A stretch of 64,000 nt of DNA from Candidatus Geocrenenecus dongiae (GCA_023267855.1 JALNLN010000003.1:19452-83451); one strand, 5' to 3'; positions 9,034 through 47,943 are shown, counted from the stretch's first letter. Notes: generated from the sequence alone by a model not told the origin. A program made the numbers and translations.

Positions 9034-9236
9034 AATCTACGCAAGAATAATAGAAAAAGATCATATTTAAATTATAAACAAACATAACAAAACACAGAAA
9101 TGCAGAAAACAAACTACAGACACAGACAAATAAGAAGAACCATCTTAAATAACTACTTAAAATTTAATATTGAGTTTTATTCTAATCCCGAGAGATTTAT
9201 AAGTAACAGTATGCATATTCTCCATGAATAAGCATC

Positions 9237-9362
9237 AGCCCGGTCGTCTAGCGGCCAAACTATGCTGGTCAGATATTATGTAGGGTCAGGGATCCCGGGC
9301 TTTGGATCATTGGCCGCTTGAGAAGAAACCCGGGGACGCCGGTTCGAATCCGGCCCGGGCTA
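9237..9362 (+). tRNA. tRNA-Gln(TTG) with a canonical anticodon-loop intron and a second ~30-nt insertion in the D-arm/position-26 region.
   Basis: Acceptor AGCCCGG (9237-9243) pairs with CCGGGCT (9355-9361); discriminator A73 and the A1-U72 pair are typical of archaeal tRNA-Gln. T-arm is GCCGG-TTCGAAT-CCGGC. Anticodon stem CCGGG (9295-9299) pairs with CCCGG (9329-9333); loop CTTTGG gives anticodon TTG at 9302-9304. The 37/38 intron of about 22 nt lies at 9306-9327. The 5' half has about 50 nt where about 19 are expected. Confidence 0.65.
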
Positions 9363-9641: not shown

Positions 9642-10862
9642 TTATCTATCTGTTTCTACAGGCCAATAGTTTAAGCTCCAGTAGATTGGAGGTATGTCTG
9701 CTATTCTACTTCCTATTGAGAGGTGTGGTAGTGCTGGGAGAAGTCTGAAACTTGGTGTAATCATTCTAACTCTATATGGTCGGTCTGCACCATCGCTTAC
9801 AACATAGAAGATTATCTCTCCTCTAGCAGCTTCAGCTCTTCCAATAGCTTCACCTTTCGGAACTTTTATGACTACTGGATGCTGCTTAACCTTCACTGGA
9901 CCTTCAGGCATCTGCTCTACGGTTTGTCTTATTATATTGAGGCTCTCTCTCATTTCCTGGAAGCCGACCATAGCTCTAGCATAACAATCTCCTTCTGTTC
10001 TAACAGCTATCTTGAATTTTACATATGGATATGCATCATAGGGATCAGCTACCCTGGTGTCGAAACTTACTCCTGAAGCTCTTAGAGTTGTTCCAGGAAT
10101 TCCGAGCTTTACAGCATCTTCTCTTTTCAATACGCCTACTCCACGTGTTCTCTCTATGAATATCTCGCTATCGAAGAACATTTCATAGTACTGGTCTAGT
10201 CTAAGATCCATAAAGTCTGCAACGTTCAACACATACTTCTTAAAATCTTCATTTAATTCTTCTTGACTTGGTTCACGGCCAATCATATGCATATAGTAAA
10301 TTTTGAATTCTTTAACTAGATCTTTGGGGACTGTTTTTGGAGCATCGTTTCTCACACCTCCAGGTATGACGTAGGCATGTGTAAATCTCTGACCAGTTAT
10401 TAGCTGGGAGAGGTCTAGTATGAACTCTCTATCATTTACACACCAGAGGAACATTGTTGAGTGTCCGAGGAATATTCCATACAGTGAGAACCAGTAGAGA
10501 TGGCTTGCAATACGGTCCAGCTCTGCCACAATTGTTCTTAGATATTTCGCTCTCTCAGGTGGATCCACCTCCATAAGTTTTTCTACTGCCAGACAATATG
10601 GTAAAACCATATGTGTTGCATCAAGTATAGATGGTCTCTCAAAGTGCGGTATATTCGTTATCCAAGTCTTGTATTCAGCCATCTTCTCTTCACCTCTATG
10701 AACAAAACCTGGATCAGGCTCTAGATCTACAACAGTATCACCGCTGACAGTTACAATCATTCTAAAGTGTCCTGTTCCTGGATGCTGTGGACCATAACTA
10801 AAAGATAGTCTAGGCCCGCCTTCATCATAAACATGTATAACCTTCTTTTCTTCCAACACCAT
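9642..10862 (-). CDS. nuoD: NADH-quinone oxidoreductase subunit D (49 kDa, NuoD).
   Basis: FVHRGEEKMAE and conserved NuoD core. The long ORF 9642..10964 was trimmed to the internal Met (MVLEEKK) to remove overlap with nuoC. Confidence 0.8.
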   Translation of the reverse strand: MVLEEKKVIHVYDEGGPRLSFSYGPQHPGTGHFRMIVTVSGDTVVDLEPDPGFVHRGEEKMAEYKTWITNIPHFERPSILDATHMVLPYCLAVEKLMEVDPPERAKYLRTIVAELDRIASHLYWFSLYGIFLGHSTMFLWCVNDREFILDLSQLITGQRFTHAYVIPGGVRNDAPKTVPKDLVKEFKIYYMHMIGREPSQEELNEDFKKYVLNVADFMDLRLDQYYEMFFDSEIFIERTRGVGVLKREDAVKLGIPGTTLRASGVSFDTRVADPYDAYPYVKFKIAVRTEGDCYARAMVGFQEMRESLNIIRQTVEQMPEGPVKVKQHPVVIKVPKGEAIGRAEAARGEIIFYVVSDGADRPYRVRMITPSFRLLPALPHLSIGSRIADIPPIYWSLNYWPVETDR

Positions 10863-10866
10863 CTTT

Positions 10867-11361
10867 CTAATCACGCCCCGGAACTTTATAGTCTTTCCTA
10901 AGTGGTGGAGTATCCATCCAGTATTCTGGTAGAAGTAGTTTCTTGAGATTTGGATGGTCTTCAAAAACTACTCCAAACATTTCATAGACTTCTCTTTCAT
11001 GATATTCTACACTAGGCCATATACTGTATAGAGATTTTGTCAAAGGTTTTTCACGATCAAGTCTTATAGATATATTTAGGATTACGTCTACGAGTTTCTC
11101 GTTCTTAATACTTCCAAGATGATATATTACCTCTATGTATGGTCCTCCACCTTCTTTTAAAGCAACTAAGTCTACCCCAGTAACACCTTTAACATGATCG
11201 AATCCATGGAGATCTCTTAGATATTTCGCGATCTCCATCAATCTCTCTTTCCTCACAACTATTTTCGTAATCTTCTTTTCGTGAAAAACTTCGCCTTCTA
11301 TATCTTCAGGAAACTTTTTCTTCAAATCTTCTACTACTTCTCTAAGTTCCATCCACCCCAT
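10867..11361 (-). CDS. nuoC: NADH-quinone oxidoreductase subunit C (30 kDa, NuoC).
   Basis: 164 aa immediately upstream of nuoD; the NuoC-like motif YEREVYEMFGVVFEDHP. Confidence 0.7.
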   Translation of the reverse strand: MGWMELREVVEDLKKKFPEDIEGEVFHEKKITKIVVRKERLMEIAKYLRDLHGFDHVKGVTGVDLVALKEGGGPYIEVIYHLGSIKNEKLVDVILNISIRLDREKPLTKSLYSIWPSVEYHEREVYEMFGVVFEDHPNLKKLLLPEYWMDTPPLRKDYKVPGRD

Positions 11362-47803: not shown

Positions 47804-47943
47804 GCCGGGGTGCCTTAGCCAGGTAGAGGGTCGGCCTCGAGATCTCTCATATAATAATAGAGTGGTCAGAAGAAAGAGTGAGCCGATGCCCCAAAACAAG
47901 ATTGGGGAAACGGGGTTCGTGGGTTCAAATCCCACCCCCGGCG
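47804..47943 (+). tRNA. Intron-containing class II tRNA, most consistent with tRNA-Ser(CGA). It has a ~39-nt canonical intron and a second ~15-nt insertion in the variable arm.
   Basis: Acceptor GCCGGGG (47804-10) pairs with CCCCGGC (47936-42); discriminator G; T-arm GTGGG-TTCAAAT-CCCAC. D-stem CCTT/GAGG. Anticodon stem TCGGC (47831-35) pairs with GCCGA (47882-86). Loop C-T-CGA-G, then an intron at 47842-47880 whose ends, CTCT and AGAG, can form a BHB helix. The variable region is 32 nt and contains a CCCCAA/TTGGGG hairpin. Confidence 0.55.

Follow-up and report, generated by a model that had tools for sequence, protein, structure and literature searches.

A tRNA-Gln(UUG) gene with two predicted BHB introns in a Geocrenenecus-like aigarchaeon, one of them at a D-loop site occupied in several archaeal lineages

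A tRNA-Gln(UUG) gene of 126 nt lies at positions 9237-9362 (plus strand) of the window, the 64,000-nucleotide stretch of DNA analysed here, which has a G+C content of about 37%. The first-pass annotation, made from the sequence alone, had proposed such a gene with two introns, and this is borne out by the sequence; the acceptor stem, T-arm and anticodon stem of the claimed intact exon halves can all be read exactly where they had been placed (Table 1). The discriminator is A9362, and CCA is not encoded. A TATA-like box precedes the gene, and A/T-rich boxes are found at a matching upstream distance in the tRNA-Gln genes of its relatives. The order nuoC-nuoD-tRNA-Gln-V-ATPase is common to the window and Candidatus Geocrenenecus huangii, the closest named relative (84% identity for NuoD and 85% for endonuclease IV), which is a member of the Wolframiiraptoraceae (Nitrososphaerota, the former 'Aigarchaeota') and not of the Thermoproteales or crenarchaea at which the annotation had hinted. 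The identical 126-nt gene was found in four assemblies (GCA_038864815.1, GCA_038895015.1, GCA_038888895.1 and one JGI hot-spring metagenome), located by an exact match of the neighbouring endonuclease IV protein, and is therefore no assembly artefact. In one of them NuoD is called as two pieces of 283 and 162 aa (locus L124, positions 1-601, against window positions 9642-10964, minus strand), which may stem from a frameshift or from the way in which GCA_038888895.1 was assembled.

Table 1. Features of the tRNA-Gln(UUG) gene, with the introns of the tRNA-Ser(CGA) gene of the same window. Arrows within bulges mark predicted cuts.
Feature	Position	Strand	Sequence and remarks	Basis
TATA-like box, putative archaeal promoter	9196-9202	+	TTTATAA; 35-41 nt upstream of the tRNA 5' end	inferred
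Exon 1, positions 1-21	9237-9258	+	acceptor 5' strand, U8 C9, D-stem GUCU, D-loop AGCGGCCAA	cloverleaf of spliced product
Acceptor stem	9237-9243 / 9355-9361	+	AGCCCGG / CCGGGCU	read from sequence
H2a, exon strand of central helix	9253-9256	+	GGCC = G18 G19 C20 C20a; then 5' splice bulge AA↓A, 9257-9259	
Non-canonical D-loop intron, positions 21/22	9259-9289	+	31 nt, relaxed BHB	BHB scan, orthologues, covariation
Intron hairpin	9260-9283	+	inner helix H3 CUAUG 9260-9264 / UGUAG 9279-9283 (5 bp), 14-nt loop	
Conserved apical-loop motif	9265-9273	+	CUGGUCAGA; overlaps TGGTCAGAT, resembles the 3' half of the D-loop	comparison of 84 introns
H2b, intron strand of central helix	9284-9287	+	GGUC; then 3' splice bulge AG↓G, 9288-9290	
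Exon 2, positions 22-37	9290-9305	+	D-stem 3' strand GGAU, C26, anticodon-stem 5' strand, C32 U33, UUG, G37	sequence and cloverleaf
Anticodon stem	9295-9299 / 9329-9333	+	CCGGG / CCCGG	read from sequence
Anticodon	9302-9304	+	UUG; loop C-U-UUG-G is 9300-9305, then 22 extra nt, then A9328	
Canonical intron, position 37/38	9306-9327	+	22 nt	BHB scan; gap against intron-less orthologue
Antisense element, canonical intron loop	9310-9318	+	UUGGCCGCU; perfect reverse complement of exon AGCGGCCAA, 9250-9258 (A14-A21)	
Exon 3, positions 38-73	9328-9362	+	A38, anticodon-stem 3' strand, 4-nt variable loop, T-arm, acceptor 3' strand, discriminator A	sequence and cloverleaf
T-arm	9338-9354	+	GCCGG-UUCGAAU-CCGGC	read from sequence
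tRNA-Ser(CGA) canonical intron	47842-47880	+	39 nt, relaxed BHB, 3/4 central pairs	
tRNA-Ser(CGA) variable-arm intron	47895-47909	+	15 nt, CCCC/GGGG, bulges AA↓A and AA↓A	

With both introns removed, 73 nt remain, which ARAGORN reads as a perfect tRNA-Gln(ttg) cloverleaf, and the product has the features that characterise archaeal tRNA-Gln: a UUG or CUG anticodon with U33, A1-U72, A73, and a standard D-arm and T-arm. Exon 1 matches intron-less tRNA-Gln genes perfectly over their 5' part, and the gene groups with about 100 tRNA-Gln genes having this 5' part in common. After splicing, the D-arm reads GUCU-AGCGGCCAA-GGAU, exactly as in the intron-less tRNA-Gln genes of Desulfurococcales, which places a non-canonical intron between positions 21 and 22; both insertions appear as clean gaps in the alignment with the intron-less orthologue. 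The gene is therefore taken, with a probability of about 0.9, to be functional and vertically inherited, a tRNA-Gln(UUG) gene that belongs to a Geocrenenecus-like aigarchaeon and has two predicted protein-spliced BHB introns; the exon/intron boundaries, both BHB motifs, the restored cloverleaf, the orthology and the covariation described below are observations, while splicing and the exact cut sites are predictions.

Using a scan of the 126 nt for the BHB motif (for each strand a helix, a 4-bp central helix, a 3-nt bulge cut after its second nucleotide, and a further helix), a full motif was found at the canonical intron, whose claimed extent of about 22 nt at 9306-9327 proved exact; it has a CUUU/GAAG central helix, bulges GG↓A and AA↓A, an outer helix of 7 bp and an inner one of 3 bp. 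The second, non-canonical intron had been put at about 30 nt and is 31 nt long, and the scan, on whose outcome that claim had been made to depend, does draw a BHB motif around it. This intron owes its existence to the pairing of the D-loop GGCC with the intron GGUC, which builds the splice helix. Its inner helix has 5 bp, and in strict register a single base pair is all that forms of its outer helix, so that a relaxed-specificity endonuclease would be required; the role of outer helix can be taken by the D-stem, with a small internal loop in between (3x2 or 4x3, adjoining the D-stem and containing the 3' splice site), and the motif is thus classed as a relaxed BHB. Some 60 weak BHB candidates are present in the 126 nt, such motifs being common by chance in GC-rich gene sequence, so the decisive evidence is the restored cloverleaf together with the comparative data; 9259-9289 is the sole candidate in the D region that restores a tRNA. 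An alternative motif in which the D-stem GUCU pairs with an internal AGAU (intron 9252-9276) was rejected, as its product is no tRNA. Unconstrained folding favours non-cloverleaf structures of the precursor (-48.1 versus -45.2 kcal/mol).

Species-representative genomes and metagenomes were each scanned once with the conserved 5' exon as the search pattern, which gave at least 239 loci. An insertion at precisely this point of the D-loop is present in at least about 100 distinct tRNA-Gln genes, which fall into at least 84 distinct D-arm/intron combinations. Among the matches listed, the named hosts include the Aigarchaeota Caldarchaeum, Calditenuaceae, Geocrenenecus and Benthortus, as well as Nitrososphaerales, Nitrosopumilales, Bathyarchaeia, Brockarchaeota and one Thermoproteaceae MAG; Desulfurococcales, Sulfolobales and Acidilobaceae have the identical exon and no D-loop intron. 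The inserts are 13-33 nt long and free in sequence except for the splice helices and a loop motif. Among the same matches, the insertion point and bulges obey the BHB rule in all 84 variants, and the central helix is paired at all four positions in 78 of them and at three of four in the remaining six. The Thermoproteaceae introns at 21/22 have no sequence in common with the others beyond the pairing strand.

For covariation, 71 distinct compressed D-arm rows were aligned without gaps and compared with 500 shuffles and with slid controls. In these rows 90.1% of the cells are paired, against 73.9% in the shuffles; 89 cells have changed on both sides, against 30.6; and the covariation score is 0.532, against 0.256. 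None of the 500 shuffles reached any of the three values, and the slid controls all scored lower. The exon change from C20 to U goes with an intron change from G to A (CG 41, UA 19, UG 9), and the first pair of the inner helix alternates between C-G (56) and G-C (12). This helix, H3, covaries across the orthologues and averages 2.83 bp, against 0.55 bp in shuffled introns.

Further insertions were seen in the tRNA-Gln genes collected. One in the T-arm or T-loop is present in Bathyarchaeia (L018, L100, L106) and in metagenomes (L126, L129, L158, L179, L180, L193, L205, L229, L239), together with the D-loop intron and sometimes with the canonical intron, to give two or three introns per gene. 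In many Desulfurococcales and Sulfolobales the tRNA-Gln 5' part gives way, at or close to 37/38, to a stretch of over 250 nt that is not tRNA (L002, L012, L014, L030, L036, L039, L073, L083, L088, L090, L097, L103). Very long canonical introns were found at L041 (146 nt) and L075 (175 nt); the cases above 250 nt could represent still longer introns, split genes or sites of integration.

The two D-arm-like segments from which the first-pass annotation had argued are indeed present (TGGTCAGAT at 9266-9274 and GGGTCAGGGAT at 9283-9293), but its suggestion that the intron arose by local duplication found no support, the 3' copy being the BHB partner strand and the internal copy an old conserved motif. 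The 3' copy, GGGUCAG↓GGAU, consists of the partner strand, including H2b, with the bulge and the D-stem strand; since the D-loop GGCC is self-complementary, any intron strand able to pair with it is bound to look like the exon, and the 3' copy is fully explained by this pairing. The internal copy lies within a motif, CUGGYCAGA, in or beside the apical loop of the intron hairpin. Its core, GGYCRGA, is found among the matches listed in 50 of the 84 distinct introns, from Aigarchaeota, Bathyarchaeia and Brockarchaeota, and the adjoining C and U show 86-88% conservation amid intron sequence that varies freely; its presence in orthologous introns of several phyla marks it as old and conserved, not as a fresh duplicate. 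A duplication of the D-arm 3' half, recent in the lineage or ancient and retained, would nevertheless account for some of what is seen. In the window's clade the internal motif and its flank (AGCUGGUCAGAU) can be set against the spliced D-arm (AGCGGCCAAGGAU); a tandem copy of GGCC plus 3 nt would by itself be expected to give the central helix, two equal bulges and splicing back to the original; and integration of mobile elements that duplicate tRNA segments has been proposed for intron gain in Caldiarchaeum (PMC3293823). The att-site integration model of that study does not fit here: the repeats are just 7-11 nt long, no recombinase or integrase gene lies beside the tRNA, and its neighbours are nuoB/C/D and the V-ATPase genes, arranged as they are in Geocrenenecus. 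Recent duplication is excluded by the occurrence of site and motif in Aigarchaeota, Bathyarchaeia and Brockarchaeota; an ancient origin by duplication is possible, and duplication in either form is considered unlikely overall.

The loop motif is complementary to exon UCU (positions 11-13) and GGYC (18-20a; GGCC in the window), and folding programs pair it with the 5' strand of the D-stem. A fixed three-dimensional role, in which the motif would replace G18/G19 at the elbow, is weakened by its variable setting, the distance from motif to splice site being 2-14 nt and the inner helix 0-10 bp. The motif shows no sign of being selected to form a fourth pair, with G10 (22 of 50 introns), and the anticorrelation of exon Y20 with the motif Y (42 versus 8) follows the clades and is for that reason not used as evidence. 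GGUCAGA was also considered as a general intron signal and rejected, since its frequency is at the chance level (12 in the window versus about 16 expected; 432 in 1.72 Mb). It was not found in any other tRNA-like context in the 1.72 Mb of related loci, where the motif is specific to the tRNA-Gln D-loop intron. The window's tRNA-Ser intron also contains GGUCAGA, which is compatible with chance.

Standard searches pass over the gene. ARAGORN in default mode reports no tRNA in the window, and at the Rfam gathering threshold the window's tRNA-Gln is unmatched, the sole match being a tRNA at 47804-47943; a permissive Rfam search recovers the 3' part alone (9284-9362, 19.4 bits against a threshold of 29). 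Being missed in this way might be expected of a decaying or disrupted pseudogene whose D-arm had been struck by an insertion, but the comparison with Geocrenenecus huangii makes such an origin very improbable. All 73 exon positions are identical in the two orthologues while the introns diverge (about 61% identity for the D-loop intron and about 78% for the canonical one), and the inner helix is rebuilt there from different bases by compensatory change, a combination in keeping with a gene that is functional and spliced and one that speaks against a pseudogene; the perfect cloverleaf of the spliced product and the identity of the gene in four assemblies weigh in the same direction. It is just as improbable that the D-region insert is retained in the mature tRNA as an enlarged D-arm. 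Folding programs do pair the D-stem GUCU with the internal AGAU to give a D-arm-like hairpin, but this would bury G18 and G19 of the D-loop, and neither the freedom of the insert in length and sequence outside its splice helices and loop motif nor the agreement of every listed variant with the BHB rule is in keeping with it. When introns are allowed, ARAGORN takes the gene for a tRNA-Pro(tgg) containing a single 43-nt intron, a reading that can be dismissed, as it needs a frame-shifted anticodon loop, has no BHB, ignores the clean two-gap alignment to intron-less tRNA-Gln, and is at odds with the orthologues, which among the matches listed all read CUUUGG or CUCUGG, that is, Gln anticodons. 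This label is an annotation trap for the lineage, and between it and the misses of default ARAGORN and Rfam, genomes of the lineage can seem to be without tRNA-Gln(UUG). tRNAscan-SE 2.0, which has a separate model with a clade-specific consensus for non-canonical introns of the Thaumarchaeota type (PMC8450103), would probably annotate the gene correctly.

For the functional two-intron gene, a course of maturation can be proposed in which the enzymes, cleavage chemistry and expression are drawn from established knowledge of archaeal tRNA splicing. BHB tRNA introns of archaea are cleaved by EndA, and the exons are ligated by RtcB. One precursor would be transcribed from the whole gene, presumably from the upstream promoter (TTTATAA); the splicing endonuclease, presumed to be of the broad-specificity alpha2-beta2 type, would cut the 3-nt bulges between 9258 and 9259 and between 9289 and 9290 for the D-loop intron, and between 9305 and 9306 and between 9327 and 9328 for the canonical one. 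The three exons would then be ligated to the 73-nt tRNA, CCA would be added post-transcriptionally, and charging would probably follow the indirect Glu-to-Gln route, which has been described for Candidatus Caldiarchaeum subterraneum, an organism without GlnRS (PMC3082918). The window also holds a tRNA-Ser(CGA) gene with two introns (47804-47943, plus strand). ARAGORN recognises a perfect 86-nt tRNA-Ser when both are removed and no tRNA when the canonical intron alone is taken out; this need for two removals suggests that the host routinely splices non-canonical introns.

The loop of the canonical intron contains the complement of the D-loop listed in Table 1. Among the matches listed, 21 distinct genes have in the canonical intron a stretch of 6 nt or more that is fully complementary to part of exon G10-A21 (loci L005, L019, L066, L115, L131, L139, L143, L147, L159, L162, L168, L170, L172, L182, L186, L208 and L224 among the antisense loci). 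In 20 of the 21 it covers the core GCGGCC, with a length of 6-12 nt and ends that vary between genes, and all of these belong to the window's Wolframiiraptoraceae-like clade. The complement is longest in L159, at 12 nt; L170 has 11 nt, L172 and L005 have 10 nt each, and the window gene has 9 nt. The observed length was reached in 0-3 of 300 shuffles, except for the 6-nt complement of L147 (26 of 300). L214, which has exon GGUC and a different canonical intron, shows an unrelated 6-nt match to TCGTCT (11 of 300 shuffles), and in the other clades, among the matches listed, the longest complement is 2-5 nt, which is the chance level. The antisense helix excludes the D-loop splice helix and also the D stem and anticodon stem. 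In unconstrained folding, the minimum-energy structures of L005, L019, L170 and L182 contain this long-range helix and are more stable than the splice-competent fold by about 6-13.5 kcal/mol; that of the window gene itself lacks the helix. The element appears dispensable for D-loop splicing, since L228 is without it yet has the D-loop intron of L186. It is not a general rule, being absent from L228 and, by eye, from the canonical intron of the tRNA-Ser.

In euryarchaea, the intron of pre-tRNA-Trp contains a box C/D guide, with an intron segment that is complementary to the exon of its own precursor. The window's intron likewise has a segment complementary to an exon of its own precursor, but it is 22 nt long, its target is the D-arm and not the anticodon loop, and it is without C/D boxes. 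An intron-borne box C/D guide was accordingly rejected, as neither a C box (RUGAUGA) nor a D box (CUGA) occurs in 9237-9362 and there is no Rfam match. The antisense element might enforce an order of splicing, act as a gate on folding, or be the relic of an inverted duplication; each of these is possible.

That tRNAs can have several introns, with non-canonical BHB introns among them, is well documented (PMC4090602, PMC4033280, PMC8450103). The tRNA-Gln(CUG) of Candidatus Caldiarchaeum subterraneum has multiple introns (Nunoura et al. 2011, PMC3082918), and the tRNA introns of this organism, an aigarchaeal host with a heterotetrameric endonuclease, include D-arm positions (PMC3082918), so the kind of gene found in the window was already known. 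The C. subterraneum MAG tRNA-Gln(CUG) found here (L069) likewise has a D-loop intron after GGCCAA and before GGAU, a canonical intron at 37/38, the loop motif (CGGUCAGA) and BHB junctions; it differs in its isoacceptor (CUG instead of UUG), in its intron sequences, and in a canonical intron without the element antisense to the D-loop, the longest complement being 3 nt against 9 nt in the window. The tRNA-Gln genes of Nitrososphaerales and Nitrosopumilales (L007, L011, L111) have a D-loop intron at the site of the window gene. Thermoproteales tRNAs, with their multiple non-canonical BHB introns (Sugahara et al. 2008; Fujishima et al. 2010; reviewed in PMC4033280 and PMC4090602), are similar in having short protein-spliced introns away from 37/38, relaxed BHB motifs, a broad-specificity endonuclease and up to three introns per gene. 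They belong to another phylum, however, and their introns are described as recent and transposing, whereas the site in the window gene spans several phyla and its motif spans Aigarchaeota, Bathyarchaeia and Brockarchaeota. In the archaeal tRNA-intron literature compared, no description was found of the breadth of the 21/22 site, of the CUGGYCAGA loop motif or of the antisense element.

A site and motif common to several lineages sit uneasily with the view, taken in the review literature, that non-canonical tRNA introns are mostly recent (PMC4033280), though repeated gain of the 21/22 intron at a palindromic hot spot is possible. It can be suggested, as a tentative and rather improbable combination, that elements of the introns gate precursor folding and splicing order and that the 21/22 intron predates the split between Aigarchaeota, Thaumarchaeota and Bathyarchaeia. 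On this proposal the D-loop mimic CUGGYCAGA, the 6-12-nt antisense element and the splice helix would make up a set of four mutually exclusive GGYC pairings, and the canonical intron would leave first, thus freeing the D-loop to form its BHB. Taken alone, the gene is ordinary for intron-rich archaea, and its importance is mainly for annotation. The comparative result is of more interest: one site is occupied across several archaeal phyla, with a conserved loop motif and, in one clade, an antisense element. If the combined proposal were true, an ancient 21/22 intron would oppose the usual view of non-canonical introns as recent; and if the elements do control folding or splicing order, this would be a rare function for archaeal tRNA introns, with a bearing on the origins of BHB introns.
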